DNA of 64,000 nt from an uncultured candidate division Zixibacteria bacterium. GTDB taxonomy: Bacteria; Zixibacteria; MSB-5A5; UBA10806. The notes under the pieces were generated by a model. It made no database searches and was not told where the DNA came from. It saw only the letters and a program-made list of their open reading frames with translations. The stretch lies in NCBI GenBank assembly GCA_963801605.1, contig CAWDFP010000006.1:1024001-1088000 (forward strand). The letters are read 5' to 3'. Position numbers and translations under genes: made by a program. Each line of letters opens with the position of its first letter. Position 1 is the stretch's first letter. This document shows positions 1 to 19,515 of this stretch, one piece after another.

Positions 1-2
1 GA

Positions 3-680
3 AGACTTGGTCTTCGAGCCTACAATAATATCTGTAAAAGCATGATAGAGTATGGTTTGTTTCCCTCTTTTAATAAAAATAAGCTGGAAAGAATTATCAC
101 AATTGAGGGAGCCGAGCATTTCCAGAAAATCAAAAATGCCGGGAAAGGGGCAGTGCTGGTTACCGGGCATTTTGGTAGCTGGGAACTCATGGGAGCTTAT
201 GTTGCCCAGCATGACTGGCCTATCGATTATTTGGTGGGAGAGCAGCATAACCTTAAAGTAAATAAAATCATGAACGATCATCGCCGTATGTTCGGCATTG
301 GGCTTATCGAATTAGGTGTGGCGGCTCGAGGAGTTATTAAGGCTGTTCGCGAGGGGCGTATGGTTGCTATGCTTTCTGATCAGGATGCGGGAAGCGACGG
401 AGTCATCGTAGAATTTCTGGGCCGACCCGCCTCCACGCCTAAAGGACCGGCAGCATTCTCGCTCAAAACTGGCGCGCCGCTGCTTTGTGGTGTAATTATC
501 CGTGAAGGTTTGCGTCAGCGAATAGTTGTTGAGCCGCCGATAAATATCACGCCAAGCGTCGATAAAAATGAAGATATCAGGGCCTTAACACAAGCCTATA
601 CCTCAATTCTTAGTAAATATATAAAGGAGTACCCCGATCATTGGTTTTGGCCGCATCGGCGCTGGAAATCAACCTCATGA
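3..680 (+). CDS. Lipid A lauroyl/lysophospholipid acyltransferase (LpxL/HtrB family), 5'-truncated by the window edge
   Basis: Frame is open from position 3. Family motifs 'TGHFGSWE', 'LSDQD', 'EFLGRPA' and C-terminal 'YPDHWFWPHRRWK'. Confidence 0.9.
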   Translation, partial: RLGLRAYNNICKSMIEYGLFPSFNKNKLERIITIEGAEHFQKIKNAGKGAVLVTGHFGSWELMGAYVAQHDWPIDYLVGEQHNLKVNKIMNDHRRMFGIGLIELGVAARGVIKAVREGRMVAMLSDQDAGSDGVIVEFLGRPASTPKGPAAFSLKTGAPLLCGVIIREGLRQRIVVEPPINITPSVDKNEDIRALTQAYTSILSKYIKEYPDHWFWPHRRWKSTS

Positions 681-3001
681 GAGAGCACTCTCTTTTTACG
701 GGACGGCCCGGACTGGTGGCCATTCTTCTATTTATTCTTGGTATTTTCGTCGCGCTATTTATTCAGTTTCCTTATTCAATCCCATTGACATTTCTTATCA
801 TTACTTTTTTTGCACTTACTTATACCTATCTCAAGGGGTGGATGCGAACATCCGCCTGGATAACTGCGATTCTTATTATTATAACAGGTTGGTATCTTAC
901 GCGGCTTTCCAGCGGCCCGTTTGCCCCCAATCATATCGAAAATCTCGCAAAAAATGGCGGGCGGGTAGAGCTGGTGGGAAGGATTATTGAAGAGCCGGAT
1001 ATCAGAAGAGATAAGACTTATTTGGTTGTCGAAGCTGATTCGATTTTTATGGGCCGAGTTTGGATTCCCACATTCGGCAGGGTACGCGCCGGCATTAAAG
1101 ATGGCGGTTCCCATTATGAGCATTCTGATATCATAAACCTTAACGGATATATCTATCAGCCCGAGGGTCCTCGAAATCCGGGCGGCTTTGACTATCGGGC
1201 TTATCTACGTAATAAGGATATTTCCGCAGCTATTTCAGTTTCGGGGCCAAATCAAGTTATTATTTTGGAAAAAGGAAGATCATTTCTTTCTGCGGTAATA
1301 TCGCCGCTCCGAACCTGGCTGGTTTCAAAAACGAGGGAGTACCTATCACCCCTATCAGCGGCGCTCCTATCCGGATTTATACTTGGCGAGCAACGTGATA
1401 TCCCCGATGAATGCCAGGAACTTTTTCGCAACACCGGAACGCTTCACCTGATGGCAGTCTCCGGATCCAACGTAGGGGTCGTACTGGCGCTCTTTGCATT
1501 CCCTTTAACGCTTTTGAAAGTGCCGCGCAAAATTAAAGTCGTTATCCTGTTTTTGGTAATACTATTCTTTGCCATCTTAACCCGGCTTCAGCCATCCGTG
1601 GTACGTGCCTCAATAATGGCGACGATTGGATTAATCGCTTATGGCTGGATACGAAAACCCGATTATATCAACCTGCTTTCATTTTCCGGACTTCTAATGC
1701 TGCTCTGGCGCCCCCTGCAATTATTCGATGTTGGAGTTCAACTTTCTTTTGCCGCCACGTTTGGCATCATATATGCGCTGCCCAAAATAAATGGCGAGCT
1801 CGCGTTTTTAAAAGGTCGAGTCGGTGGATGGTTGCGAAATTTCCTGCTTGTAGTGGCAAGCACCTTAGCGGCTCAATTGGCCGTTCTGCCGCTTATGGCT
1901 CATTATTTTCAAAATATCCCACTTTCAGGCGTTCTTGCTAATATCCCCATGATACTTTTAGCGGGCCTGGCAAGCACCCTGGGGATCGCATTTTATTTTT
2001 CGCCAATTTTAGGCGGATGGCTATCGACACTGATTTCAATTCCTCTTGGTTGGTGCCTGGATATTATTGTGATAATCCTTCGCTTTTTTGCCTCTCTGCC
2101 TTATGCCAATATCGCGGTAGCTTCGCCGGGCTGGCTCTTGATAATCATTTTTTGGCTTCTTCTATACTTTGGTTTCGAACTTTTGGCCAACCGAAGATTC
2201 AGCAAACTTACATTAATTATGGTCTTGATGGCATCCAACATTTTGATATTCAGCCAAATTTTCCAAACGCGAGACGATTGGAGATTGGAGTTTCTCGATC
2301 TGGGCAGAAACCACGCCTGGATCTATTCTAATAAAGGAGCACCAACTGTCGCCTGCTTAGATTTTTTCGTTCCACAAGAGGATGCTGCCAACGTCATCAT
2401 TCCGCACATTCTTAATCATCATGGAGGAAATCTTAATTATCTTATTACCAGCACTCCTGAAGCAAATGACGTTACTACGATAGCCACAATTTTTAATCCA
2501 AAAATAATTTCATTTTCAAAAATAGATACTATCTTAAAAGATACAGCCATAAGTGATACGGACATAGAGCCTTACAGCAGCCAAAGCAATTTTCCGGCCA
2601 ACATAAAGGTTATATGGGAAAGCTCCGATAATAAGGAAGGGCGCCAGGAGTCTCTCCCGGCGTTTGAGATCGATATAGGGAAAGGTTCGATTGTTTTGGC
2701 TGACTGGACTGGAGCGGAAATTTTGAATGGGCTTGATCAAAAGCGTGTAAGCCTTCTCGAACTGCCGTGGGGCGTCTATGCCCAATCAAGCTGCAAGAAC
2801 GCAATCGAAAAGATCGCTCCGGAGTGTGTAGTTTTCTCCCCCGACCGCTTCACTCAGGCCATGCCTCGGAAGCGGGACGAGTTGACATACTCGGCTGATC
2901 GAATTCTTTCTACATCGATCTTTGGTGGAATCTCATTTAGCAGCGTTGATAGCACTATGAGAATTGAAACCATGAAACCAATTTTCAACGAGAGGAAATA
3001 A
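677..3001 (+). CDS. comEC: ComEC/Rec2 DNA uptake channel
   Basis: ATG at 677 overlaps the upstream stop (ATGA). DUF4131-type 'PRNPGGFDY' and competence-domain motifs 'GTLHLMAVSGSNV', 'PSVVRA', 'QLSFAAT'. The C-terminal MBL-like region is degenerate. Confidence 0.93.
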   Translation: MREHSLFTGRPGLVAILLFILGIFVALFIQFPYSIPLTFLIITFFALTYTYLKGWMRTSAWITAILIIITGWYLTRLSSGPFAPNHIENLAKNGGRVELVGRIIEEPDIRRDKTYLVVEADSIFMGRVWIPTFGRVRAGIKDGGSHYEHSDIINLNGYIYQPEGPRNPGGFDYRAYLRNKDISAAISVSGPNQVIILEKGRSFLSAVISPLRTWLVSKTREYLSPLSAALLSGFILGEQRDIPDECQELFRNTGTLHLMAVSGSNVGVVLALFAFPLTLLKVPRKIKVVILFLVILFFAILTRLQPSVVRASIMATIGLIAYGWIRKPDYINLLSFSGLLMLLWRPLQLFDVGVQLSFAATFGIIYALPKINGELAFLKGRVGGWLRNFLLVVASTLAAQLAVLPLMAHYFQNIPLSGVLANIPMILLAGLASTLGIAFYFSPILGGWLSTLISIPLGWCLDIIVIILRFFASLPYANIAVASPGWLLIIIFWLLLYFGFELLANRRFSKLTLIMVLMASNILIFSQIFQTRDDWRLEFLDLGRNHAWIYSNKGAPTVACLDFFVPQEDAANVIIPHILNHHGGNLNYLITSTPEANDVTTIATIFNPKIISFSKIDTILKDTAISDTDIEPYSSQSNFPANIKVIWESSDNKEGRQESLPAFEIDIGKGSIVLADWTGAEILNGLDQKRVSLLELPWGVYAQSSCKNAIEKIAPECVVFSPDRFTQAMPRKRDELTYSADRILSTSIFGGISFSSVDSTMRIETMKPIFNERK

Positions 3002-3002
3002 A

Positions 3003-4169
3003 GTGAGTTTCGCGGGCAACCTGAAAACCGTATCTCCGGCTGATATTTTCCAGCTTATTGTCACTTCCAAAAAAACAGGTGCCCTGTCTATAGTTAAAAG
3101 CGATTCCCGCCGCTTCATTTACTTCCAGGATGGTCTTCTCACATTTGCCTCATCCTCCGACAAACAGGATATGTTCGGAAGCCTGCTGCTTAAAAAAGGA
3201 AGAATTTCCAAACCTGAGCTTGATGCCATTCTTAAAGAAAAACATGATGGCAAGAAAATCGGCCAGGTATTGGTTGAAAAAGGAATCCTAACCCGGGATG
3301 AGGTTTTCGACTGTCTCAAGATGCAGATCGATGAGATAGTCTATAGTCTTTTCGGATGGAAAGACGGCGACTTCGAATTCATCGAGGGAAAGGCGCCGCC
3401 GCCCGATGTCATTCTTACCGAGCTCAATCCCATGAATATGATCATGGAGGGGATGCGGCGTATTGATGAATGGACCGAACTAAAAAAGATTCTGCCCTCC
3501 GATGATGCCCAAATCGAGCTGGTGGTTGATCCGGTCATGAGAAACGAAGAGATGAGACTTACCAAGGATGAGTTTATCGCCCTGGCGTTGATCGGATCTG
3601 GCAAGAGATTCTCGAAAGTTGTGGAAGAAAGTTACCTGGACCAGTTCCAAACCTGCAAGGCGCTGGCTAATTTGTTACAGATGGGGCTTATCAAGGTCGG
3701 GAAAATTCTTCCGGTAATTAAAAACTCAGAGCAGGAACAGAAAAATTTAGTCGAACTATTAGCCCAGGTTTATATCAGCAATCTGGCGCTTATCTTCTCC
3801 GGATTAAAAGAAAAGCTGGGTAACAAAGGCGACCGGGTGATATTCGAGACGTTCGAAGAAAATAAAATGTTTTATCCGATCTTAAGCCAGTTTTTTACCG
3901 CTCGCGATGGTACCATTAATTTTGAGCACTTCCTTGAATTCTATAAAAGATTGCCGGAAGAGGCTCGAATCTGGCGCATTGTTTCAAATTTCAACTCCCT
4001 CCTCAACGATTACCTCGTGGCTGTCCAAAGGCATCTCGGAAATAAGATTTACCGTCGAGTGGTTTCCGAAATTAAAATAAATATCCAAAACAGTATTAAT
4101 CGCAATCGCCAATTGGCCTTAAAGTACGGGCTCGAAGAAGAATTTTCGCGAGCCTTGCGAGATAGATAA
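3003..4169 (+). CDS. DUF4388 (PATAN-like) domain protein with internal MshEN-like helical repeats
   Basis: N-terminal 'GNLKTVSPADIFQLI..KKTGAL..IYFQDG..FGWKDGDFEF' is typical of DUF4388. Repeats 'FGSLLLKKGRI' and 'IGQVLVEKGIL'. Confidence 0.85.
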   Translation: MSFAGNLKTVSPADIFQLIVTSKKTGALSIVKSDSRRFIYFQDGLLTFASSSDKQDMFGSLLLKKGRISKPELDAILKEKHDGKKIGQVLVEKGILTRDEVFDCLKMQIDEIVYSLFGWKDGDFEFIEGKAPPPDVILTELNPMNMIMEGMRRIDEWTELKKILPSDDAQIELVVDPVMRNEEMRLTKDEFIALALIGSGKRFSKVVEESYLDQFQTCKALANLLQMGLIKVGKILPVIKNSEQEQKNLVELLAQVYISNLALIFSGLKEKLGNKGDRVIFETFEENKMFYPILSQFFTARDGTINFEHFLEFYKRLPEEARIWRIVSNFNSLLNDYLVAVQRHLGNKIYRRVVSEIKINIQNSINRNRQLALKYGLEEEFSRALRDR

Positions 4170-4173
4170 TTTC

Positions 4174-4539
4174 ATGAAGAAATCCTTCGTTGTTCTTATT
4201 ACCGGGCTTGTCCTGGCGGATCATGGACACGCTAATGCCATGACATCCACAGGATATGCTATACTGGGCGAGTCATTTTCGCTGGTATTGTTATTGGCCT
4301 GTCTCATTATTGCATCGCTTATTATAACGGAGCTTCGAGGCGGGAAATTTGGCCAGCCCTGGATTTTTATGGCCGCCGGATTTGCCGTTGCTCTGGCAGC
4401 CAGCGTAATCCATTTACTCGATCTGAAGGCAATTATCTTTGGCGATTATGATCTCAGGCCTATTTACCTCGCGGCCCGAACTGCTTCAATGCTTTTAATC
4501 CTGGTTGGCCTTTTTTTCTATAAGAAGGGGCTGCAATAA
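4174..4539 (+). CDS. Small membrane protein (signal-like N-terminus plus about 3 TM helices)
   Basis: Hydrophobic segments around 'LRGGKFGQPW'. Starts 4 nt after the previous stop. Confidence 0.7.
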   Translation: MKKSFVVLITGLVLADHGHANAMTSTGYAILGESFSLVLLLACLIIASLIITELRGGKFGQPWIFMAAGFAVALAASVIHLLDLKAIIFGDYDLRPIYLAARTASMLLILVGLFFYKKGLQ

Positions 4540-4614
4540 TCGTTTGATTGGCTCTAAACATCTTCGCGGCCTTGTCGATAACATTATTAGTTGGTTTGAC
4601 CTGAGAGGTCCTAT

Positions 4615-5439
4615 ATGATTGATGTCATTGAAATAGACGAACGTATCGCCAAGTGCGAAAAGATTCTCGATATGAATCCGCAAAGCCAGATTTTTGCGGC
4701 TTTGGCCGATGCCTATCGCAAAAGGGGAGATTTGGCCAGAGCTCAGGAAATTTGCAATGATGGGCTGAAACTTCACCCGTCTTACGCATCGGCTCGAGTC
4801 GTCATGGCTAAAATTCAATTGGCCAGAGGGAATTATGATTTGGCCTCCGATGAACTTAAAATGGCCATCCTCTCAACCGGACGCACCAGGGCGATCGATG
4901 TTTTAGAAGCTGAGATATTAATCAGACGCGGCCAGAAAGCCGAGGCCTGCCTTATCCTCCAGGGACTCGAGGCAACTGACCCCGATGACGAAAATGTAAA
5001 GAATCTCAAAGCGCTTCTCGATGAAAAACCGAACCCGGATAAGATCGAACTGCCTGCGGATTTATCGCTTAAGCTCGAAAGAGCCGATCAAAAGAGCCTT
5101 ACGCTTGCTCATGCCTTAAGTGTTCTTAAAGTTATGCCGCGCGTTATGGGCGTGATTGCAGTTGGATCTAACGGGCTTCTCCTTGATGGCCGTTTCGACA
5201 GCCATAATGTTAAAGAGGAATTTGCGGCTCTTTCAAAAGGCTTTGTTGATTGGGCAACACAGGGAAGCCAGCGCATCGATTTCGGGGCGGTAAATGAGGT
5301 GCTGATTGAAACCACTTCGTCGAAAATCTGGATTTTCGATAAAATAAAGTATCTGCTCGTAGTTTTTACCAGAGATGATGTCAGCATGGGTGCTCTTAAA
5401 CTGAAAATAGATGATCTCTTTAGAGACATTGTTATTTGA
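4615..5439 (+). CDS. TPR + C-terminal Roadblock/LC7 domain protein
   Basis: TPR-like 'NPQSQIFAALADAYRKRGDLARA' at the N-terminus. Roadblock pattern 'VMGVIAVGSNGLLL..FAAL..EVLIET..LLVVFTRDDVSMGALK' at the C-terminus. RBS GAGG. Confidence 0.82.
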   Translation: MIDVIEIDERIAKCEKILDMNPQSQIFAALADAYRKRGDLARAQEICNDGLKLHPSYASARVVMAKIQLARGNYDLASDELKMAILSTGRTRAIDVLEAEILIRRGQKAEACLILQGLEATDPDDENVKNLKALLDEKPNPDKIELPADLSLKLERADQKSLTLAHALSVLKVMPRVMGVIAVGSNGLLLDGRFDSHNVKEEFAALSKGFVDWATQGSQRIDFGAVNEVLIETTSSKIWIFDKIKYLLVVFTRDDVSMGALKLKIDDLFRDIVI

Positions 5440-5448
5440 GGAATCGAT

Positions 5449-5898
5449 ATGGCCCGAGCAAAAGCAGTTAAAAAAAACCAGGACAAATTTCAAATGGCTG
5501 TCAACTATTTGATCGAGTACGATGGGGTAAGGGGAGTCGCTATCGCCGATCCCGAAGGGCTGGTTATAGCTCGCGGCGGAAACGATTTCGATGCCGAGCT
5601 CCATTGTGCCCTGGCGCAGCAAATTACAGCATCCTTAGATGCTATATTGCCGAAATTAATAACTCCGGGAATCGAACATCTTATTGTCAAAACCCCGCAG
5701 GATTGGCTGACCGTGGCTCGCTCGGCAACCTTTCTTCTGATTGTGGTGGCCAAACGAAATGCCGATGAGCTTCTTAATATCCGAATCGGCAAAGCGCTTG
5801 AAATGATTTCATCTCATCTAAAAGGCAAATATCAACCGGCCTTTTCGACTGACCCATCCGGAGTCAAGGCGAAAAAAATGGAGGCTATAAATGTATGA
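5449..5898 (+). CDS. Roadblock/LC7 domain protein
   Basis: 'GVRGVAIADPEGLVIA' roadblock signature; RBS GAGG. Confidence 0.85.
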   Translation: MARAKAVKKNQDKFQMAVNYLIEYDGVRGVAIADPEGLVIARGGNDFDAELHCALAQQITASLDAILPKLITPGIEHLIVKTPQDWLTVARSATFLLIVVAKRNADELLNIRIGKALEMISSHLKGKYQPAFSTDPSGVKAKKMEAINV

Positions 5899-6229
5899 TG
5901 TTTTAGGCGATCTCAACAAGACCTCCGGAGTCAAAGGCTCTATGCTGGTCGGCAACGACGGTATCATTATCGCCGCAGATCTCGATGCCAAGCTCGAAGA
6001 CGAAACCGTAGGCGCGATGGCAGCTTCGATTATGACCAACATCGGCAAAGCTCTGGGTCGGCTTAAACAACATAACCTGGAAAGAGTAACCATCGAGGCT
6101 GATGCAGGAAAAATATTCCTATGCGAGGCCGGAGTTGGGATCCTGGCAGTTGTAACTGAGCCGCAGGTTAATGTCGGATTAGTCAGGTTGGAGATTAAAA
6201 ACGCCGTTTCGCAAATTAAGGGGATGTAG
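5891..6229 (+). CDS. Roadblock/LC7 domain protein
   Basis: 'SGVKGSMLVGNDGIIIA..VGAMAASI..VNVGLVRLEIK'; overlaps the upstream stop; RBS GGAGG. Confidence 0.9.
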   Translation: MYDVLGDLNKTSGVKGSMLVGNDGIIIAADLDAKLEDETVGAMAASIMTNIGKALGRLKQHNLERVTIEADAGKIFLCEAGVGILAVVTEPQVNVGLVRLEIKNAVSQIKGM

Positions 6230-6242
6230 AGAGGAATTTGGG

Positions 6243-7451
6243 ATGGTATCCATTAATTACGCTTTCAGGGAGATTATCTCCAAAATAGTTTACTATGGTC
6301 CGGGCCTCTCAGGGAAGACTACTAACCTTCAGTATGTCTTTAAAAAGATTCCCAGTGAAACCCGCGGCGAGCTCATCAGCCTGGCAACTGACGCCGACAG
6401 GACTCTATATTTCGATTTTCTGCCTGTCAATGTTGGAACGATACAGGGTTTTGCCACCAAATTCCAACTCTATACGGTTCCCGGCCAGGTGTATTACAAC
6501 GCCACGCGCAAGCTTGTTCTACGGGGCGTGGATGGCTTGGTATTCGTGGCAGATAGCCAACTGGCCAAGATGGATGAGAATCTTGAATCGCTCCATAATC
6601 TAAAAGACAACCTCGAGGAATATGGGTACGATATGTGCCAGATTCCTTTGGTTATACAATACAATAAACGTGATTTACCGGATATCGTATCAATCGCCGA
6701 CCTTGAGAAAGCTCTTAACCCGGGCGGCTTGCCGTACTTTGAGGCCGTGGCCGTCACGGGCGATGGAGTGTTTAAGACACTTAAAGCCATAAGTAAAATC
6801 GTTCTGGATCAGGTAAAGGCCAAAAGAATGGAACCGGCCAAGGTTATTAAAACGCAAACGCAACCTCAACCAGCGCCCAAGGTGCCCGTGGGAGTAGCCC
6901 CGGCCGCCAGCCCGCGAGCAGTTAATAATGAAGTACTTGTTGCTCAACCAAAACCTGAGATTATTAGCCGGGGAGTCGAGGTGCCGGAATCTAAGCTAAA
7001 ATCCGATGATAAGATTGGTACCAGCCAGGTTGAATCTGCAATCATTTCCGATATACCGGGCAGAGTGGTGGTATCTGACGCGCAGGATGATAAACCGCAG
7101 CCTCATGAGGAATCAGTGCATCAGACAGCCACCGAAGAGACAACCGAAAAGGCTGTCATTCGGGATGAAGCACCAGAGCACGGTACGAAGAGCATCGTTG
7201 TTAGCCAGGATTTTGGTCTTACCAACGAATATAGCGTGGTTGACACCAAAGAAGAGGCTTCCCAGGGCAAGGGATGGCTTTCGTATAATGACAACAAATC
7301 AGTCAGCGAAGATGATAATGACGAAATAGAAGACATTAGTCTAAAAAGCGCTTTGCCGTTACGCAAACCGCAAATGGCTGAGAGCCGTAAGGTAAAGAAT
7401 AAAACAGGGAAGTTTAATATCTTCGGCTGGTTCAAGAAATCGAAAAAATAA
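6243..7451 (+). CDS. mglA: MglA-family small GTPase with a ~200-aa C-terminal extension
   Basis: 'KIVYYGPGLSGKTTNL' (G1), 'DRTLYFDF' (intrinsic Arg), 'TVPGQ' (G3), 'NKRD' (G4), 'FEAVA' (G5). Confidence 0.95.
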   Translation: MVSINYAFREIISKIVYYGPGLSGKTTNLQYVFKKIPSETRGELISLATDADRTLYFDFLPVNVGTIQGFATKFQLYTVPGQVYYNATRKLVLRGVDGLVFVADSQLAKMDENLESLHNLKDNLEEYGYDMCQIPLVIQYNKRDLPDIVSIADLEKALNPGGLPYFEAVAVTGDGVFKTLKAISKIVLDQVKAKRMEPAKVIKTQTQPQPAPKVPVGVAPAASPRAVNNEVLVAQPKPEIISRGVEVPESKLKSDDKIGTSQVESAIISDIPGRVVVSDAQDDKPQPHEESVHQTATEETTEKAVIRDEAPEHGTKSIVVSQDFGLTNEYSVVDTKEEASQGKGWLSYNDNKSVSEDDNDEIEDISLKSALPLRKPQMAESRKVKNKTGKFNIFGWFKKSKK

Positions 7452-7477
7452 TACCTGGCGATAAAAGGAGGTTTAAG

Positions 7478-7963
7478 TTGTCTCAAGAACAACAGGTCCT
7501 CTATGAGGATCAAATTCAGCAGATCGATCAGGTCCTGAGCCGGATCATCAGGGAAGCGGAGGCTAAATGCGCGCTCCTGGTGGATAAGGACGGGCACCTC
7601 ATCACGCGGCAGGGGTTTACCCATACTCTCGATACCACGGCCCTGGCTGCTCTTCTGGCGGGAAGCTTCGCCTCCACGAAGGAGATTGCTCGCCTGGTTG
7701 GCGAACCGGAGTTTTCGGTTCTTTTCCATCAGGGGAAAAAAGATCATATCCATATCTCACTTATCGACGAGCGCACCATTATGGTGGTGATTTTCGACGA
7801 CCGCACCACGATCGGTATGATCAGGCTCTATGCCAAAGAAATCGGAGAGACTTTAAAAACTATTCTGTCTGGCACATCGGAAAGCAAACATGATGATCTT
7901 GAATTGGGCAAGGATTTCTCGGATAGCGCTGAAGCTAAACTCAACGATATTTTCCAGGAATAG
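7478..7963 (+). CDS. mglB: MglB (roadblock-domain GAP of MglA)
   Basis: 'LLVDKDGHLI..DTTALAALLAG..IARLVGEPEFSVLFHQG..VIFDDRTTIGMIRL' plus acidic C-terminal helix '..LNDIFQE'. TTG start with AAGGAGG RBS. Confidence 0.93.
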   Translation: MSQEQQVLYEDQIQQIDQVLSRIIREAEAKCALLVDKDGHLITRQGFTHTLDTTALAALLAGSFASTKEIARLVGEPEFSVLFHQGKKDHIHISLIDERTIMVVIFDDRTTIGMIRLYAKEIGETLKTILSGTSESKHDDLELGKDFSDSAEAKLNDIFQE

Positions 7964-8011
7964 ATTCGATTGGCATATTTGTGGCTGTATAGAAATTAAG
8001 GATTCAGAAGA

Positions 8012-9706
8012 ATGGCAATAGAGCTCGGTAAGATACTTGTCAAAGCCGGCAAAATCACAGAAGTCCAACTTCAAAAGGCGCTGGAAATGCAAAAAAACGG
8101 CGCCGGTAAGCTGGGTGAGATCTTGGTTAAAATTGGCGCTATTACCGATGAAAATGTCATCTCGGAATTTATCGGAAAGCAGCTTAATATTGGTGCGTTA
8201 CGCTTAACCGATATTGAGCTCAATCCCGATATTGTTAAGCTTATCCCTCAGGATATCGCCCGTAAATTTAACGTTATTGCCGTTTCCAAACTTGGCAAGA
8301 CCCTGATTGTCGCCATTTCCGATCCTAATAATATTTATGTTCTCGATGCCATTAAATTTATCACCGGCTGCAATATTCAGCCGGTCATTTCGCCCGAAAA
8401 TACCATCCAGAGCGCTATCGAAACTTATTATGGTGATACCAGCGGCATCAATGAAATCATTAAGGGGATGAGCGCGAACTGGAGGTAGTCGAGGAGGCGG
8501 AAGATGACCCCATCGGAACAGGATCTGCAATCGCAGGTTCAGGATAAGCCTCTGGTGAAATTGGTCGATGGTATCATCGCCGATGCCATCAGAAAAGGCG
8601 CCTCAGATATTCATTTCGAAAGTTATGAAAAGCGCGTTCGGGTCCGTTATCGTATCGACGGCGTACTGCAGGAGATGGCTCCTATTCCGTTTAAATACCG
8701 GGCAGCCATCATTTCACGTATTAAGATTATGGCCGATCTCGATATTTCCGAGCGTCGATTACCGCAGGATGGCAGAATCAAGGTGAAGTTGGGCGAGCGC
8801 ACCATCGATCTTCGTGTTTCGGTTTTGCCAACAATTTTCGGCGAAAAGATCGTCATGAGAATTTTGGATCCCAAATCACTTATGATCGATCTGACCAAAC
8901 TTGGTTTTCCCGAGCTGGCGCTTGATAATTTTAGCAAAGCTATCAGTCTGCCTTATGGCATGATTCTGGTTACGGGGCCTACCGGATCCGGTAAAACTAC
9001 GACCCTGTATTCGGCCTTAAAGACGTTGAATACGATTGATGTTAATATTATGACTGCCGAAGATCCGGTCGAGTTCAATTTCGACGGTATTAATCAGGTA
9101 TTGGTTAGATCCGATATTGGCCTTACTTTTGCCGCCGCGCTACGCTCCTTCTTACGCCAGGACCCCGATATCATCATGGTGGGCGAGATTCGCGACGGCG
9201 AAACTGCCGATATTGCCATCAAGGCCGCCTTAACCGGTCACCTCGTATTTTCAACTCTGCATACCAATGACGCACCTTCGACCATCAACAGGCTGGTGGA
9301 TATGGGCGTACCCAGCTACCTGGTAGCGGCTTCTACAAAGTTAATCATGGCTCAAAGAATGGTGCGTAAAATCTGCACCTTCTGTAAACAGGAAGTGGCC
9401 ATTGACGCCCAAAATCGCCGATATACTTCGATTGGATACCGAAGAAACTAAATCAATGAAGCTATTCGAGGGAAAAGGCTGCAATCAATGTAATGGTACC
9501 GGGTTATTCCGGAAGAACCGGCCTTTTCGAAGTTATGCCGATATCACCGGCTATTGAAAAGATGATCGTCCTGAACGCGTCGACGGCCGAAATAAGGGCT
9601 CAGGCCATGAGCGAAGGGATGCTGACTCTTGCGTCACGCCGGGTTTGAAAAACTTCGCCTGGGGATCTCCTCGCTGGAAGAAATAGTAGCCGAGACTGCG
9701 GTATAA
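8012..9706 (+). CDS. pilB: Type IV pilus extension ATPase PilB (split by several indels)
   Basis: MshEN-type N-terminus, 'ERRLPQDG', Walker A 'GPTGSGKTT', 'LRQDPD', 'TGHLVFSTLHTN' and Cys pairs. Frame breaks near 8470, 9410, 9500-9530 and 9630; stop TAA at 9704-9706. Confidence 0.92.
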
Positions 9707-9759
9707 AAACTATAGTAGTTAAATTTATTGTCGATAATAAGTAAAGAGGTATAATTGAA

Positions 9760-10891
9760 ATGGTTACACTACGCGAATTACTCGAATTGATGGTTAAGCG
9801 CCGAGCCTCCGATCTTCATCTTACGGTTGGCGCTCCACCGGTTATTAGAATAGATGGCAAGCTCGTCAGAACCGACTACGAGATATTGACGCCTGATTTA
9901 ACCAAGAAGCTGGCTTATTCGATCATGAACGAAAGGCAGCGCCAGAAATTTGAGGAAAATTCGGAGCTCGATTTGTCTTTTGGAATTGAGCATCTATCTC
10001 GTTTCCGCTGTAACGTTTTCATGCAGCGAGGCAACGTAGCGGTAGCTTTGCGTCAGATTCCGTTCAAGGTTCTGACTTTTGAGGAACTTGGGTATTCCCG
10101 ATACGATTGTTAAATTAGCCGAACTGCCTCGTGGTCTGGTTCTTGTAACAGGTCCTACGGGCTCAGGCAAATCTACAACTCTTGCGGCTCTGATGGATAA
10201 AATAAATACCGAACGGCAACTGCACATAATAACCGTAGAAGATCCAATTGAGTATCTTCACCGCCATAAATCATCGCTTGTCAATCAGCGCGAAGTCCAT
10301 TCAGATACGAAGAGCTTTGCAGCTTCGCTTAAATATGCTCTTCGCCAGGATCCCGATGTGGTTCTGATCGGAGAAATGCGCGATCTGGAAACGATGGAAG
10401 CAGCCCTGACGATTTCCGAAACGGGCCACCTGGCGTTCGCCACGTTGCATACCAACTCCACCGCCGAAGCCATTAATCGTATTGTTGACGTATTTCCTCA
10501 TACGCAGCAGGAACAAGTACGAATCCAGCTTTCCTTTGTCTTGCAGGGAATTGTTACCCAGCAGCTTATCCCCAGGGTAAACGAGGGACGAGTTCTGGCC
10601 ATGGAAGTACTGATTGCTACACCTGCCGTCCGTGCCGTCATTCGTGATGATAAGATTCATCAGATTTATTCATTGATTCAGGCCGGACATAAGTATGGTA
10701 TGAAGACCATGAACCAATCGCTACTAGAGCTTTATACGAAAAAGAAAATAACATATAGTGATGCCCTTGCCAGATCGACAAACGCCTCAGAGTTCGAGGA
10801 GATGGCGCGGCAGGGTAATCTTCGTGGCGATGCTACCAGCAGAAACTTGGATGCCACGGGTAGAAACTTAGCTGAACAGATTGAGAGGTAA
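9760..10891 (+). CDS. pilT: Type IV pilus retraction ATPase PilT (one indel near 10090)
   Basis: 'ASDLHLTVGAPP', 'GPTGSGKSTT', 'TVEDPIE', 'ETGHL..TLHTN', and 'AVRAVIRD' (AIRNLIRE-like). Confidence 0.93.
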
Positions 10892-10894
10892 GGC

Positions 10895-12094
10895 ATGCCT
10901 GTCTACGATTACAAAGGCAAATCCCTCGGAGGCAAGCAGGTCCAGGGTGAACTCAAGGCCAAAAACAGAGTTGAGCTCGAGAGGCTCCTGCGCTCCAATA
11001 AGATCTTAGTAACGAGCATTTCCAAAAGGCCGTCGCAAATTAAGATTCGCTTTGGAAGCGGTATTAAGAAGATCGACATCTCACGCTTTACTCGCCAGTT
11101 TGCCACTATGATCTCAGCCGGTCTTCCTATGGTGCAGTGCCTGGAAATACTTGCAACCCAGATGGAGTCTCCCGAATTTCGAAAAATAATTAACGAGGTT
11201 AAGGAGTCTGTGCAGTCGGGCTCAACCTTATCGGAGGCTATGAGCAGGCATAAGAAAGCCTTCGACGATCTCTACGTCAATATGGTAGAGGCCGGTGAGG
11301 TCGGTGGTGCTCTCGATACCATCTTGATACGTCTCGCCTCTTACCGCGAAAAAGCCGATAGGCTGGTTCGCAAAGTAAAAGGCGCCATGGTTTATCCTGT
11401 GGTGGTTATGATCGTAGCCATAGGCGTGACATTCGCGATGTTGCGATTCATCGTACCTGTATTCGCCAAAATGTTTTCCGGATTAAATGCCGCTTTGCCG
11501 GCGCCTACTCAATTCGTATTGAATATTTCCAATTTTCTGCGGGATAACTCCCTGATTCTTCTGGCAGGAGTCGCCGGCATCATCATAGCATATAAGCTTT
11601 TTGTTAGGAAACCAAACGGCCGACTGGCGGTTGATAAATTTAAACTTCGCATGCCGCTTCTTGGAGATCTCATCAGGAAAAGTTCGGTCTCGCGTTTTAC
11701 CCGGACTCTGGCGACACTGCTTTCTTCGGGTGTTTCAATTCTGGACGCCTTAAACATCACTGCAAAAACATCGGGCAATATGGTCCTGCAAAATGCTATC
11801 AAGCAGGCCATGCTCTCTATCGCCGAAGGTGAAACGATTACCGCTCCCCTTAAGGATTCCGGAGTATTCCCGCCAATGGTAACCCAGATGATTTCGGTTG
11901 GTGAGAAGACGGGCGGAATGGATGAGATGCTGACCAAGATCGCCGACTTCTACGATGAAGAAGTCGATGCGTCAGTGGCGGCTTTGACATCAATTATCGA
12001 GCCGGTCATTATTGTATTCATGGGCGGTATGATAGGCGCTATTTTGATAGCCATGTATCTACCCATGTTCGATATCGTCGGAAAGATTAACTAG
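10895..12094 (+). CDS. pilC: Type IV pilus platform protein PilC (GspF family)
   Basis: 'FTRQFATMISAGLP', 'AGEVGGALD', 'GEKTGGMDEML', 'AMYLPMF'. Confidence 0.95.
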   Translation: MPVYDYKGKSLGGKQVQGELKAKNRVELERLLRSNKILVTSISKRPSQIKIRFGSGIKKIDISRFTRQFATMISAGLPMVQCLEILATQMESPEFRKIINEVKESVQSGSTLSEAMSRHKKAFDDLYVNMVEAGEVGGALDTILIRLASYREKADRLVRKVKGAMVYPVVVMIVAIGVTFAMLRFIVPVFAKMFSGLNAALPAPTQFVLNISNFLRDNSLILLAGVAGIIIAYKLFVRKPNGRLAVDKFKLRMPLLGDLIRKSSVSRFTRTLATLLSSGVSILDALNITAKTSGNMVLQNAIKQAMLSIAEGETITAPLKDSGVFPPMVTQMISVGEKTGGMDEMLTKIADFYDEEVDASVAALTSIIEPVIIVFMGGMIGAILIAMYLPMFDIVGKIN

Positions 12095-12116
12095 AGGATT
12101 TCGGCCTCTTACTTAC

Positions 12117-12150
12117 AAAGGGCTTCTTTTTCCAATGAAAGAAGCCCTTT
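12117..12150. terminator. Intrinsic terminator-like hairpin after pilC
   Basis: 13-bp perfect inverted repeat aaagggcttcttt / aaagaagcccttt. Confidence 0.7.
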
Positions 12151-12156
12151 CTTAAT

Positions 12157-13869
12157 ATGAAACTATCATCCAAATATTTCCAAATTGAGCCTATCGATAA
12201 ACGGGCCTGGTTTCTAATACTTCGCCTGATAATCCCGGCATTATTGGTCGGCTCAGGGCTGGAGTTTTTACGTCCTATCGCCTTCAATTATGCACTCCTG
12301 GTGATCTATGGTTTATTGGCAATAGTGCTGTTTATCTACACGCTCGCTACCCGAAATACTACCGGGACTTTTATCAGGTCGCTTATTATTGCCCTGATAT
12401 CGGGAGAACTGTTAATTGAAGGATTACTGGTCAATCAGGTCGGCGCCAACTTCTCGCCGTTTATTCTGTTTTTTATTATCACCATTGTCACGGCTGCCAT
12501 GTTTTTCCATCTGATCGGCTCTATCGTGGTTGCATCTCTGGCCGGGCTCCTATATTCGCTTCCGATATTTTTTAATCTATCTACAATCTATGAGGGCTTG
12601 ATTGAACCCGCGAGGTTGGCTGGAATCGGACTTTCATCGGACGAAGCTTTCTATACGGTATTCCTGCACCTTTGTTTATTCTATATCTCCGCCTTTATTG
12701 CCGGATATTTGGCGCAAAACTTGTTACTTGCTTCACGCGAATTAAGCCAGGTTCGACTTGAGACCAATGAAATTTTGGAGCAGATGCACTCCGGCCTGTT
12801 AACCATCGATGGCGAAGGCCGCATAATATATTTTAATCGGGCCGCCAGCGAAATATTGGCAGTAGATCACCTGCGTGCCAAGGGGACCTATGTTGAGGAT
12901 ATATTTCATTCCGGCCTGACCGATTTTTCTCAAAAGATATTAAATGCCCTGCAAAATGGCCGTTCTGAGATTCGCGCCGAAATAAATATCAAGCATCCAA
13001 CCAAGGGCATCATTCCCATCGGTCTGACATCATCAGTGCTGCGGGATGATGATGGGCATACTCGCGGGGTGATTGCCGTTTTCCAGGATCTGACCGAAGC
13101 TAAAAAACTCGAGGCTCGTCTTCGGGCGTCCGATAGACTGGCGGCGGTTGGACGCCTGGCCGCGGGGATCGCACACGAGATTCGAAATCCGCTGGCATCG
13201 ATTTCGGGATCGGTAGAGGTCTTGAAAGATGATCTTCATCTAACTGATGGTGATGATCTCAGACTACTCGAACTTATCCTGAAAGAGTCCTCACGTTTGA
13301 ATACCATCCTGACAGATTTTCTCAACTTCGCCCGTGTCAGCAGAGTATCATCCGGTCAGTGCAATCTATCGTCGGCAATCCTTGAAGTCGTGGCGCTCGC
13401 GTCGGCGCATCAACAACCGGGCCAGAAGATTTGCATTACCCAGGAAATTCATCGTCCTAACATCTTCATTCAGGGAGGCGAGGATCAGATCAAGCAGATT
13501 CTCTGGAATTTAATTCTAAACGCATTTCAGGCTCTCAATGAAAACGGCGGCGAAATCTGCGTGGCCACCCGCGAATTGCGCTCCCATGAGGGTTCTCCAA
13601 TAGTGCGCCTGGAAGTAGCCGACAACGGCCCCGGGATACCTTCCGATCTTAAAGAAAAGATTTTCGAACCCTTCTTCTCGACAAAAGATGACGGCACCGG
13701 CCTGGGATTGCCAATGGTAGGACGAATCGTCGATTGCCTGGGCGGGCGAGTCGAGTTAGAATCGTCGCCTCTATGGAAAACAATATTCGCAATTTATCTC
13801 CCCGTGACAACCGGCAACATATCGAGCCAGGAAACGGCTCAACAAGAAGTATCAGCTTTAATAAACTGA
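12157..13869 (+). CDS. pilS: PilS-like membrane PAS sensor histidine kinase
   Basis: Multi-TM N-terminus, PAS region, H-box 'AAGIAHEIRNPL', N/G boxes 'NLILNA', 'DNGPGI', 'GTGLGL'. Sits directly after pilC. Confidence 0.8.
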   Translation: MKLSSKYFQIEPIDKRAWFLILRLIIPALLVGSGLEFLRPIAFNYALLVIYGLLAIVLFIYTLATRNTTGTFIRSLIIALISGELLIEGLLVNQVGANFSPFILFFIITIVTAAMFFHLIGSIVVASLAGLLYSLPIFFNLSTIYEGLIEPARLAGIGLSSDEAFYTVFLHLCLFYISAFIAGYLAQNLLLASRELSQVRLETNEILEQMHSGLLTIDGEGRIIYFNRAASEILAVDHLRAKGTYVEDIFHSGLTDFSQKILNALQNGRSEIRAEINIKHPTKGIIPIGLTSSVLRDDDGHTRGVIAVFQDLTEAKKLEARLRASDRLAAVGRLAAGIAHEIRNPLASISGSVEVLKDDLHLTDGDDLRLLELILKESSRLNTILTDFLNFARVSRVSSGQCNLSSAILEVVALASAHQQPGQKICITQEIHRPNIFIQGGEDQIKQILWNLILNAFQALNENGGEICVATRELRSHEGSPIVRLEVADNGPGIPSDLKEKIFEPFFSTKDDGTGLGLPMVGRIVDCLGGRVELESSPLWKTIFAIYLPVTTGNISSQETAQQEVSALIN

Positions 13870-13996
13870 CATATAAGTTTTTCACGGTTCCCCAATAATA
13901 TCGTTCATTCATATTGCTTTTTGAATAGCGGTTAGCGATAATATCGTTGTATTTATTTATTAGCCGCTATTCTTTTTTTACAGCGAAATTGACCGG

Positions 13997-15710
13997 ATGA
14001 AACGTATCGATTACAAACATTCAAATATATATCCAAATATCGCAATCACTCTTACGGTTGCATTATGGCTTTTTACTGTAATTTTTCATCCCCGGCCGAT
14101 TTTGGGGTATGGGGCAGCTTGCATATTTCCCGATAGTATGGTCATTGATATATATCGCTGGTCTGATATTCCTGTTTGCTTATCTATCGAAAATAATTCA
14201 ATCGGCTGTTCTCACCAATATTTTAGCTTCAGTTTCATCCTTGTGGAAACGGTGTCCGGAATGGTTAAAATTTTCAATAACTGGGATTACCGCACTTGCC
14301 TTGTTTATCATATTAAGGGATCGGACCATGCTGCTGGGTGACAGCATTATTCGAATCGGAGAATTGGGCGATAAAGGCCTCGACAGAATACTCAGCACTT
14401 CAGCGGCTGAACCACTCGATTATGTCATTCACCGTGTATTTTATAAATATCTTTGTCTTCCGCTTGGCCTCAACGCTACTATTTGTTACGAATTGATCTC
14501 ATACGCAGCCGGCTTGATATATCTTTGGGTGGCTTGCATGATTGCACGGCAGATTAAAAGCGATGAGTCCGGTTTCTGGCTGCCATTTTTATATCTGTTA
14601 GGATGGGGTGGAGTTTTTATGCTTTTCGGTTATGCCGAGGAATATGGCCTGGCGGCCTCGGCTTTGTTGCTGTTTGTTTACTACTCGATAAAATATTTTA
14701 ATAAAAAAGGAAGTATCATTCCTGTTGCGATTGTCTTTCTAATCGGCTTTTTTTTGCATAATCTGTTATTGATATTACTGCCGTCAATTCTCTATTTGCT
14801 TTTTATCGAATATAAATCGAGCAGCAAAAAAGCGATTGCGGTATTTATGGGATTAGCGATTCCTATTGCGGGTTGGCTTCTGATAAGCTACACGAAAAAA
14901 GAAACCGGGGCATTTCTTTTACCTGAAAGCGGAACCGAGCCGGGATATATGCTCTGGAGCGGCAAACATCTTCTTGATATTATTAACGAGCTGCTATTAA
15001 TCTGTCCGGCAATTTTGGTAATGCTATCGCTCCAGGAAAGAGGTAAGATGCCAACCGCCAGACGCAATAGCATGCGTCAGGCTATCGGACTCGCGGCCAT
15101 CTCCAGTTTGATCGTACTGATCTTCGTTGATCCCCAACTTAGCATGGTGCGCGATTGTGACCTCTTTGCGCTGCCCCTTCTGGCTTTTAATGTGGCGCTG
15201 TTTTTGGGAGTCGATTGGTCTAAAGTGGGGACCATTCTAAAAAATGCTATCATAATCATTACGCTGGGATTCACTTTCTCCTGGATTATGATTAATGCCA
15301 GCGAAGATCTGGCGTTGGCGCGCTATGAGAAATTACTCCCTTTAGATCCTGCCAGAGCGCGCTTGGGATATGACCGTCTCGGTTTCTATTATACGTCGCA
15401 AAAGAAATATCCTGAAGCCGAAGCCGCTTATAAGAAATCGATTGAGATAAAGCCAAATTTCCGCACTATTTTAAATCTGGCTTATTTGCAGGAAGATATG
15501 GGGAAAAACACTGAGGCTGCCGCAAACCTGAGGGAATTGCTAAAAAAGGAACCCATGAACGCGATAGTACTCTATGAATTGGGATGGCTTTACTATAATA
15601 CCGGTCAACCCAAAGAAGCACTTGAGATTTTCCGTCAATTTGAGCGAACCGGCGAGTATGCCCCTGATATCGACCAGGCAATTATCAAGCTCGAGAAAAA
15701 GGCGCTTTGA
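13997..15710 (+). CDS. Polytopic membrane protein with C-terminal TPRs, GT-C-like (indel near 14100)
   Basis: About 12 hydrophobic segments with loop motifs 'LLGD', 'GYAEEY', 'RDCDLF' and a TPR tail. The N-terminus lies in the 13997 frame and joins the 14109 frame. Confidence 0.65.
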
Positions 15711-15813
15711 TAGCGATATATGTGATTTCTATCCATATTTTCAATTTATTAGCCAGGTAAACCTTTTACCTATAACGTATTATCAGATTTTGTGCGGGGC
15801 TTCTTTTTTCCGC

Positions 15814-15842
15814 TTGACATGAACAAATGAACAGTATATTTT
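15814..15842 (+). promoter_or_regulatory. Sigma70-type lexA promoter with a candidate LexA operator in the spacer
   Basis: TTGACA at 15814-15819, TATATT/TATTTT at 15835-15842, and TGAACAAATGAACA between them. Confidence 0.65.
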
Positions 15843-15908
15843 TATGCAGCAAAACAGATTTAACGATTTTGATAATTGAAGAACTGGTTTTATAGATTGG
15901 AGGCTCCT

Positions 15909-16536
15909 ATGGCCAAAGACTTAACCGCCCGGCAGACGGGAAATATTCGAATTCATCAAGAATATGATCCGCAGTAAAGGCCGTCCGCCATCCATACGAG
16001 AGATCGGCGAAAGCTTTAAGATTCATTCTACAAACGGTGTTCGCGCTGTGCTGGAGGCTCTGGAACGCAAGGGGTATATCAAACGTGACCGCTACACCTC
16101 GCGCGGCATAGAGCTTCTCAAGGAGGCTCTCGATCAGACCATCTCCGATCGCCTTCGGGAAGTACCCTGGGTAGGCCGGGTGGCCGCCGGTACCCCTATT
16201 TGGGCGGAGCAGAATATCGAGGGCAGCTTTTTGTTGGATCGCGATTTTGTGCCCGGTGAGGAGGTATTCTCGCTCAAGGTGCGCGGCGATTCGATGATCG
16301 ATGCCGGTATTTTCGACGGCGATTATGTGCTGGTCAAACGTCAGGATATGGCCAACGCCGGTGATGTGGTGGTGGCACAAATCGGCGACGAGGCTACGGT
16401 CAAAAAGTTCTTTCCGGAGCGGCTGCGTATTCGTCTGGAGCCTGCCAATTCCGACTATGGTCCGATCGTGGTGGAGAGAAACACACCCGGTTTTGCCATT
16501 GCGGGCAAGGTAATTGGGCTGTTAAGGAAGATGTGA
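15909..16536 (+). CDS. lexA: SOS repressor LexA (indel near 15940)
   Basis: RBS GGAGG. 'MAKDLTARQ.EIFEFI..PPSIREIG' winged HTH, Ala-Gly site 'VAAGTP', catalytic Ser 'GDSM' and Lys 'TVKK'. Confidence 0.95.
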
Positions 16537-16541
16537 TAACC

Positions 16542-16683
16542 GTAGGTCAGGCGCCCTGGCGCCTGACATTGCGTGTCACAATTTATTGTGACCGCAAATA
16601 TTGCCTCAGGATGTGCCCCGATTCATGATCGGAGTATCCTGAGGCATAAAAACAATGTGTTTGGGGCACGACAACCGTACCCC
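16542..16683. repeat. Cluster of four REP-like palindromes between lexA and the next gene
   Basis: gtag-gtcaggcgcc-ct-ggcgcctgac (16542-16567); gtcacaatttattgtgac (16575-16592); tgcctcaggat..atcctgaggca (16602-16646); ggggcacg..cgtacccc (16663-16683). Confidence 0.8.
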
Positions 16684-16704
16684 ATGGAAATAAATATCAT
16701 TCCC

Positions 16705-16953
16705 ATGTACCAGGACATCGAAGAATCAGTTGACGTAATCGCCGTCTTTGAATCGGGACGGCTGCAGCCGATCAAGTTCCGCTGGAAAGGCCGCTCGATC
16801 AAGATTAAGCAGATCACCGGTTCCTGGAAATCGGATGTCGGCGCCCACAAGATACGTTTTTATGCGGTGCTCGATAGTGCCTCCAACTTTTTCCAACTCG
16901 CTTACGATGAGAAGAACACAGCCTGGGTACTCAATAAAATATGGGTGGAGTAA
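16705..16953 (+). CDS. Small beta-rich protein, DUF6504-like
   Basis: 'P.KFRWKGR..I..I...W.....FY......FQLAYD....W.L' pattern. Start at 16705 or 16684; the longer ORF from 16573 runs through repeats. Confidence 0.7.
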   Translation: MYQDIEESVDVIAVFESGRLQPIKFRWKGRSIKIKQITGSWKSDVGAHKIRFYAVLDSASNFFQLAYDEKNTAWVLNKIWVE

Positions 16954-16964
16954 TAGAAAATAGT

Positions 16965-16990
16965 GATGGCACACGAGGACGTGCGCCATC
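16965..16990. repeat. REP-like hairpin with GAGGAC loop upstream of dinB
   Basis: gatggcacac-gaggac-gtgcgccatc, 9 of 10 stem positions pair. Same loop as the hairpins at 30680 and 47849. Confidence 0.7.
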
Positions 16991-16997
16991 CACGGGC

Positions 16998-18191: not shown

Positions 18192-18291
18192 TATCGAATT
18201 ATACTTGACTTATACTTCCATCTTTTTATTATTAAGAGCGTATTATATGATGTTTAGGGTTTGACGGATTTTCATTTAAGGTGGGTGCACT

Positions 18292-19504: not shown

Positions 19505-19515
19505 ATATTCGAAAA

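Follow-up and report, generated by a model that had tools for sequence, protein, structure and literature searches.

An uncultured Zixibacteria bacterium (assembly GCA_963801605.1; 87% complete) encodes the Ras-like GTPase MglA, several roadblock proteins and a DUF4388/PATAN protein in a single row directly ahead of a type IV pilus motor. The stretch analyzed, here termed the window, comprises 64,000 nucleotides (nt) of contig CAWDFP010000006.1. Twelve genes lie on its + strand in the order comEC, DUF4388/PATAN, small membrane protein, TPR-roadblock, RB1 and RB2 (two roadblock proteins), mglA, mglB, pilB, pilT, pilC and pilS. We use the term seven-gene cassette for DUF4388 through mglB, with comEC as a flank outside it. 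The cassette probably encodes a polarity switch in which MglA is tethered to the membrane and, likely by way of the PATAN protein, controls the extension ATPase PilB; it would thereby license pilus extension at one membrane site. Its parts and their likely role are known; notable and testable are the predicted self-anchoring of MglA and the proposed wiring to PilB, a mechanism read from sequence. To our knowledge Zixibacteria is a phylum without cultured members, and the cassette provides a clue to surface motility within it.

An earlier note on this DNA, made from the sequence alone, proposed a self-contained GTPase switch tied to the pilus motor. The rest of the genome supports this proposal. 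The sole MglA, the sole DUF4388 protein and all roadblock matches of the source genome are at this locus, no CheW was found in the genome as assembled, and the cassette genes are kept or lost together beside pilB. Among the genomes of the class, CheW was found in 32 of 61 and not found in the remaining 29. The co-directional arrangement and gene order given in that note are likewise confirmed by the coordinates, with no gap exceeding 75 nt: the junctions from comEC to pilS measure 1, 4, 75, 9, -8, 13, 26, 48, ~53, 3 and 62 nt, with the pilB stop read at 9704-9706.

Conservation of the cassette beside pilB

Gene order was compared across 65 non-redundant loci of 77 (L031-L107), after exclusion of ten non-Zixibacteria or fragmentary loci and two near-duplicates. 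A gene was counted for a locus just where it was found or where the flanking DNA was long enough. As these loci were found via MglA and are mutually related, the counts describe retention and not independent events. Of 151 genomes sampled from the phylum, MglA itself was found in 149, almost invariably in single copy. The rest of the cassette is retained almost throughout (DUF4388 60/60, small membrane protein 55/61, TPR-roadblock 62/62, RB1 64/64, RB2 64/64, mglB 64/64) and its flanks are also frequent (pilB 61/61, pilT 49/57, pilC 47/54, pilS 43/49, comEC 51/55). All 61 loci with enough DNA have mglB followed by pilB, at a median gap of 40 nt, so the synteny that the earlier note asked to be surveyed is kept across Zixibacteria. 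The block does break between pilB and pilT (8/57) and between comEC and DUF4388 (4/55). Such breaks fall before DUF4388 or after pilB, never within the seven genes or between mglB and pilB, which identifies pilB as the fixed neighbor of the cassette.

Two genomes of one genus, G024 (96% complete) and G033 (88%), carry the flanks alone. In these, comEC lies 290 and 284 nt from an intact pilB-pilT-pilC-pilS, on one contig each, and genome-wide searches gave no MglA, roadblock or DUF4388 match. As exactly these seven genes are missing while comEC stands beside intact pilB-pilT-pilC, the cassette behaves as one dispensable unit without which motor and comEC persist. In a FastTree tree of PilB plus PilC, this genus is a basal branch of the phylum, with a small sister phylum outside. 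This sister phylum has TPR-roadblock, RB2, tailed mglA, mglB, pilB, pilT, pilC and pilS. Loss of the seven genes as one block is therefore the simpler reading, since one loss is simpler than two gains, and parts of the cassette may be younger than the base-of-phylum split. Two further genomes are less informative: G086 has no MglA, comEC or this pilB, which may reflect an assembly gap, and the block of G036 (74% complete) is split over contigs. In the sister phylum, locus L074:4049-9645 contains additional roadblocks, a receiver-PATAN-roadblock fusion and a HAMP membrane protein upstream of TPR-roadblock.

An unrelated lineage couples MglA to the pilus in another way. At L180:9995-20287 and L181:9995-20346, mglA, DUF4388, pilM, pilN, two further genes, a secretin gene, pilB, pilT and pilC are consecutive. 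The MglA encoded there is tail-less and belongs to a large 200-aa (amino acid) family, and no roadblock or mglB is in view. The two metagenome loci are 84% alike and count as one event; among relatives of their MglA at ~75%, two of four named rows are Armatimonadota. Two lineages thus place mglA and PATAN ahead of pil genes, and the independent coupling suggests that MglA together with PATAN forms the core of the connection with the pilus.

Metagenome loci served as a control. Among 80 of them, the 53 with the order mglB-mglA are all tail-less and none has pilB (29 of them with at least 3 kb of downstream DNA), and 13 combine the order mglA-mglB with a tail, 11 of these with pilB. The order mglA then mglB, which the earlier note had remarked on, holds in the window, where the downstream gene is a true MglB. 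In another lineage (L158:677-2724), genes for a TPR protein, a roadblock and MglA are consecutive, and the contig ends inside mglA.

The tailed MglA and its predicted partners

MglA has 402 aa and not ~195; the earlier note had overlooked its tail. The intact G domain is followed by a long polar linker that runs into a basic-aromatic end. The G domain retains its P-loop, Arg53, Gln82 and NKxD, and the catalytic residues are present in 68 of 68 sequences. The G1 P-loop, intrinsic Arg53 finger, catalytic Gln82 and NKxD fit group 1, although the protein exceeds the 150-240 aa single-domain size used for that group in PMC4316618. The tail behind the G domain spans 79-455 residues in 62 relatives (median 179) and is polar, with a bulky hydrophobic share of 0.13 in the linker against 0.28 in the G domain. 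A full-length AlphaFold model, useful for disorder alone, shows it as low-confidence coil.

The end of the tail is predicted to be a membrane-targeting sequence. We scored ends for at least two aromatics and a net charge of at least +3 in the last 25 residues. This holds for 65 of 67 MglA ends compared with 1 of 348 windows inside tails, and for 292 of 1694 open reading frame (ORF) ends of the source genome. The test is crude, given that membrane proteins of the locus pass it more often (the small membrane protein in 27/55). It is not circular, unlike a separate pattern test drawn from the same sequences. Some ends, such as those of L091 and L102, are a near-repeat of the last ten residues of Escherichia coli MinD, a region with a membrane-targeting role (PMC6803595). 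In a quick-method MglA tree (104/146 rows), 60 tail-less canonical rows group at 99, and the tree does not resolve the tailed rows into a single clade. The longer MglA clusters in the Atlas, taken by length, are most commonly from Fibrobacterota, Myxococcota and Krumholzibacteriota. A Deltaproteobacteria MglA paralogue (L082:9995-11074) has a folded-looking C-terminal extension and no basic-aromatic end.

The cassette holds three roadblock domains besides MglB, in TPR-roadblock, RB1 and RB2. MglB resembles its Thermus (E 5e-18) as well as its Myxococcus xanthus counterpart over its full length. RB1 and RB2 are distant paralogues, RB2 being little like MglB. Of 63 RB1 orthologues, 44 are long, and 35 of these have at least three hydrophobic segments; RB1 carries an N-terminal membrane domain in other orders and is a short soluble form in the order of the source organism. 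All 62 of 62 RB2 orthologues have an x-D-G-I/V motif, whose Asp is typical of MglC. The motif would be in register with F25-D26-I28 of MglC, the FDI surface (PMC4719450). Against solved structures, no chain named MglC was among the 14 matches to RB2 at E of 1 or less, and a weak match to LAMTOR2 was obtained (E 0.25). We considered whether the TPR-roadblock protein is SgmX and rejected this: it has 274 aa with ~3 TPRs and a roadblock, compared with ~1,060 aa, TPR blocks at both ends and no roadblock. A search of representatives with TPR-roadblock returned two taxon names, both from TPR-only matches.

The PATAN protein is the likely candidate for output to PilB. PATAN is the domain named DUF4388, and in Synechocystis it binds the N-terminal domains of PilB1 and PilC in two-hybrid assays (10.1101/2021.06.11.447907). 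The window protein is modeled (mean pLDDT, the predicted local distance difference test score, 84) as a PATAN core into which MshEN-like helices are inserted, together with a winged-helix part and a C-terminal domain that is helical. The insert resembles the N-terminal helices of MshE and PilF in this model (MshE 5htl: Z 7.2, root-mean-square deviation 3.0, 59 residues), a likeness noted for the family (10.1101/2021.06.11.447907). A Foldseek search with the model gave nothing at E 0.001. The C-terminal domain has just helical-bundle matches (Z of 7.5 or less) and corresponds to no known family. No receiver domain is present in the window protein; one is present in the PATAN protein of the sister phylum. 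As regards c-di-GMP sensing, the first Arg of the two MshEN receptor motifs, RLGxxL...LxxxLxxQ, is kept in 5 of 56 PATAN inserts. In cassette-side PilB the same position (residue 4, window 8021-8023) is Glu or Asp in 55 of 55 sequences, and most Leu, Gly and Gln of the motifs are kept. Changes of the MshEN Arg9 cost less than fivefold (PMC5013675). Residue 4 is Lys in the lineage that lost the cassette, but also in the MglA-bearing sister phylum, and the covariation is not clean.

Consecutive pilB, pilT and pilC, together with pilM-Q and type IVa pilins in the genome, mark a type IVa pilus motor. In this assembly pilB has indels near 8474-8510, 9397, 9501 and 9626, and pilT a single frameshift. 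These are likely assembly errors, because many other genes, essential ones included, are also broken: on comparison with a family relative, up to 17 out of 83. Recheck of six broken genes gave four clear frameshifts, one in-frame break and one false call; the four frameshifted genes are presumably ileS, mraY, murG and purM. Moreover, pilB is full length in the loci of 60 relatives, alongside 4 short ORF pieces. Real inactivation of pilB and pilT was rejected as unlikely, though the four or five indels of pilB exceed the average. A PLP (pyridoxal phosphate) aminotransferase-like gene (window 18292-19504) has likewise been broken in two by a frameshift, as the error load of the assembly would lead one to expect. 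A second, self-contained pilus or secretion cluster (C6:993104-1013175) lies 11-31 kb upstream of the window and includes a pilin, pilT, minor pilins, pilMNOPQ, large repeat proteins and a second pilB and pilC. As that cluster has its own PilB, PilC and PilT, the cassette-side motor is probably paired, by elimination, with a pilM-Q cluster located on contig C7 and with three type IVa pilins encoded at other places on C6.

A strong terminator-like hairpin follows pilC, as the earlier note had seen. Its folding energy is -20.1 kcal/mol (z -5.35), equaled by 0 of 200 shuffles, and it is the sole non-coding one among the ten strongest 44-nt windows of 600-14000. Its position is conserved: the pilC-pilS junction folds at -15 or below in 31 of 46 relatives, compared with 3-11 of 50-64 at five other junctions. 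A promoter and terminator consensus scan gave counts at chance level, and its list does not include this hairpin. The earlier note counted pilS in the run; the gene is co-directional and close to pilC but sits behind the hairpin. A weaker hairpin with a U run follows pilS (window 13920-13970, z -2.0).

Features of the window described in the text (all on the listed strand; positions are those of the window)
Feature	Position	Strand	Basis
comEC, DNA uptake channel (flank)	677..3001	+	PF03772, PF13567
DUF4388/PATAN protein, 388 aa	3003..4169	+	PF14332, E 2e-32
Small membrane protein, 121 aa, three hydrophobic segments	4174..4539	+	Hydropathy; no Pfam family matched
TPR-roadblock fusion, 274 aa	4615..5439	+	TPR residues 8-87; weak Robl_LC7 match 172-250
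Roadblock RB1, 149 aa, soluble form here	5449..5898	+	PF03259
Roadblock RB2, 112 aa, MglC-like	5891..6229	+	PF03259
MglA G domain	6243..6824	+	E 8e-80 to M. xanthus MglA
MglA linker, polar, predicted disordered	6825..7373	+	Coil, pLDDT mostly <50
MglA C-terminal basic-aromatic segment, predicted MinD-type membrane-targeting sequence	7374..7451	+	Charge/aromatic test
mglB, GTPase-activating protein (GAP), including C-terminal helix	7478..7963	+	Match to M. xanthus MglB over its full length, E 2e-32
pilB, extension ATPase with MshEN domain, several frameshifts	8012..9706	+	PF05157, PF00437
pilT, retraction ATPase, one frameshift near 10088	9760..10891	+	See text
pilC, platform protein	10895..12094	+	PF00482, two domains
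Terminator-like hairpin, 14 pairs	12117..12150	+	Folding; position conserved
PilS-like membrane PAS histidine kinase, 3' of hairpin	12157..13869	+	PAS, HisKA, HATPase_c

Named relatives are mostly from Zixibacteria. The co-directional run begins further upstream than comEC, the start side of which is overlapped by 4 nt by a lipid A acyltransferase gene (lpxL). Downstream of pilS, lexA, a DUF6504-like gene and a DinB-type polymerase gene are consecutive and form an SOS mutagenesis cassette (window 15964-18191); lexA is 3' of pilS in many relatives of the same order. An Rfam search of window positions 1-20000 gave no match.

Proposed mechanism and alternative explanations

We propose that the tail would hold MglA at the inner membrane on a leash, allowing MglA-GTP to gather at one membrane site. 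MglB, positioned by the MglC-like RB2, RB1 and TPR-roadblock, would switch MglA off away from the active pole. MglA-GTP might then signal via TPR-roadblock and PATAN, with either PilC or the PilB N-terminal domain as the target, in keeping with the action of PATAN in cyanobacteria. As pili can be built without the cassette, it would govern the place or timing of extension, and hence the direction of twitching and perhaps the site of DNA entry, rather than assembly. A more elaborate version combines a Ras-like GTPase self-anchored by its C-terminal tail, in the way of eukaryotic Ras and Rab, membrane patterning like that of MinD/MinE, a Ragulator-like scaffold of four roadblocks placing the GAP, PATAN as direct effector to PilB, and no RomR or chemosensory input. 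We regard this full combination as tentative and rather doubtful.

Several observations weigh against a membrane-tethered switch acting on PilB. The links between its parts are drawn from gene order and sequence, and gene order is slow to change in the phylum, in part of which the upstream lpxL and the downstream lexA are retained as well. The loss of the block happened once, in a single genus whose branch in the FastTree tree is long. The target is not fixed by elimination, as the genome encodes another PilB/PilC pair and two additional PilT-like ATPases. Two loci have tailed mglA and mglB without a pilus gene in the available DNA, namely L122 (in a cluster named Chitinispirillaceae; also with DUF4388; 2.1 kb past mglA) and L123 (0.2 kb past mglA). 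With respect to the tail, the AlphaFold model of MglA lacks a terminal helix and is poor at residues 1-90, and hydrophobic moments in the order of the source organism are mostly 0.2-0.6, compared with 0.63 for the best window of MinD. In such a model, an absent helix would speak neither for nor against a helix forming on the membrane. In M. xanthus, direct contact of PilB with MglA or with SgmX was not detected (PMC7519303, PMC11580455).

The cassette could instead be a membrane-tethered GTPase switch for another process, such as placement of the division site, growth pole or secretion, with its place before pilB an inherited gene order. The partial conservation of the lpxL and lexA neighbors would fit this explanation, as would L122, where the available DNA has DUF4388-mglA(tail)-mglB but no pil genes. 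No MinD above cut-off was found in the source genome, which leaves room for MinD-like positioning. However, breaks fall on either side of the cassette yet never separate mglB from pilB, and mglA and PATAN are coupled to a pil operon in the unrelated lineage of L180 and L181. The published functions of MglA and PATAN moreover both concern pili, and we consider this explanation unlikely. Quite unlikely, in our assessment, is dedication of the cassette to natural transformation, whereby the competence pilus and ComEC would be brought to one site. The comEC gene adjoins the cassette in most loci and is separated from DUF4388 by just 1 nt here, dprA is present in the source genome, and lexA and a DinB-type polymerase gene lie 3' of pilS. 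Yet in 4 of 55 loci comEC and the cassette are separated. In the sister phylum no comEC was observed in the 10 kb around the cassette. The gene also persists with pilB-pilT-pilC where the cassette is absent, and is itself coupled to the upstream lpxL. The dedication to DNA uptake suggested in the earlier note is thus weakly supported.

A transcriptional output has also been considered, in which the winged-helix part of the PATAN protein would bind DNA and, with the PilS-like kinase, control pilin or pil expression under MglA. Model residues 167-240 do match winged-helix folds at Z 5.5-8, pilS is found 3' of the block in most loci, and the sister phylum has a PilR-like regulator 3' of pilS (L074). 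Such Z values are nevertheless typical of common arrangements, and the matches include proteins that do not bind DNA; the PATAN preprint argues against DNA binding (10.1101/2021.06.11.447907). In addition, pilS is placed behind the conserved hairpin and stays where the cassette is lost. This output seems very improbable. We therefore retain control of PilB by a tethered MglA as the preferred reading.

Relation to known polarity systems

Much of the surrounding biology has been described previously. In both M. xanthus (PMC7519303, PMC11580455) and Thermus (review PMC12024867), MglA and MglB determine the polarity of pili. A neighborhood of MglA, roadblock and PATAN genes has been published (Wuichet and Sogaard-Andersen, PMC4316618; Makarova 2006 as cited there), as has the coupling of two roadblocks to one group 1 mglA (PMC4719450). 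As far as PMC4316618 describes its neighborhoods, the cassette differs in its link to pilB-pilT-pilC, its tailed MglA and its membrane roadblock. That survey, the main one of prokaryotic small GTPases, dropped GTPases of more than 240 aa and so left out proteins this long. Our literature search, which covered mainly openly accessible papers, found no paper on a tailed MglA, a membrane roadblock or a row with pilB, and nothing on type IV pili and twitching in Zixibacteria; Table S2 of PMC4316618 may list related neighborhoods. A C-terminal membrane anchor on a prokaryotic Ras-like GTPase would be of interest given that such extensions are thought to be eukaryote-born (PMC10933270, said of Asgard Rab). 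The cassette also gives a short list of candidates for the step between MglA-GTP and PilB, and joins the literatures on MglA polarity and PATAN-PilB binding into one testable chain.

The closest comparison is the polarity module of M. xanthus (MglA, MglB, MglC, RomR/RomX, RomY; SgmX, FrzS, SopA on PilB). Both systems have a group 1 MglA with Arg53 and Gln82, an MglB with a C-terminal helix, an MglC-like second roadblock, a TPR protein and PilB as likely target. In the cassette, however, MglA has a tail of variable length with a MinD-like end, the order is mglA-mglB, and there are four roadblock domains, of which one is joined to TPRs and, in most orders, another to membrane helices. It further includes a PATAN protein and arranges all genes in one row before pilB, without an SgmX of 1,060 aa in the block or, in the source genome and nearly half of its class, a detected CheW. 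The earlier note contrasted this row with M. xanthus genes lying outside the pil locus, which was overstated: mglAB (MXAN_1925/1926) is away from pil, but mglC (MXAN_5770) and sgmX (MXAN_5766) are near pilT (MXAN_5787) by locus number. With the cyanobacterial PatA-type regulators (PixE, PixG, LsiR, PilG) the cassette shares a PATAN domain with a helical insert like the PilB N-terminus and a tie to PilB/PilC. Its PATAN protein differs from these in having no receiver and a helical C-terminal domain, and in being encoded with a GTPase switch instead of a chemosensory system.

Two more distant comparisons concern the membrane. Like the membrane-targeting sequence of MinD and FlhG, the MglA tail has basic residues and, after them, an end whose aromatics are helix-spaced; in some relatives the likeness is close to identity. 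Here the segment is on a Ras-like GTPase behind a long linker and not on a dimerizing ATPase, and the likeness over ~10 residues may be convergent. Likewise, the cassette recalls Ragulator-Rag in combining a small GTPase with a predicted membrane anchor and four units of roadblock fold, an analogy made with no claim of orthology.

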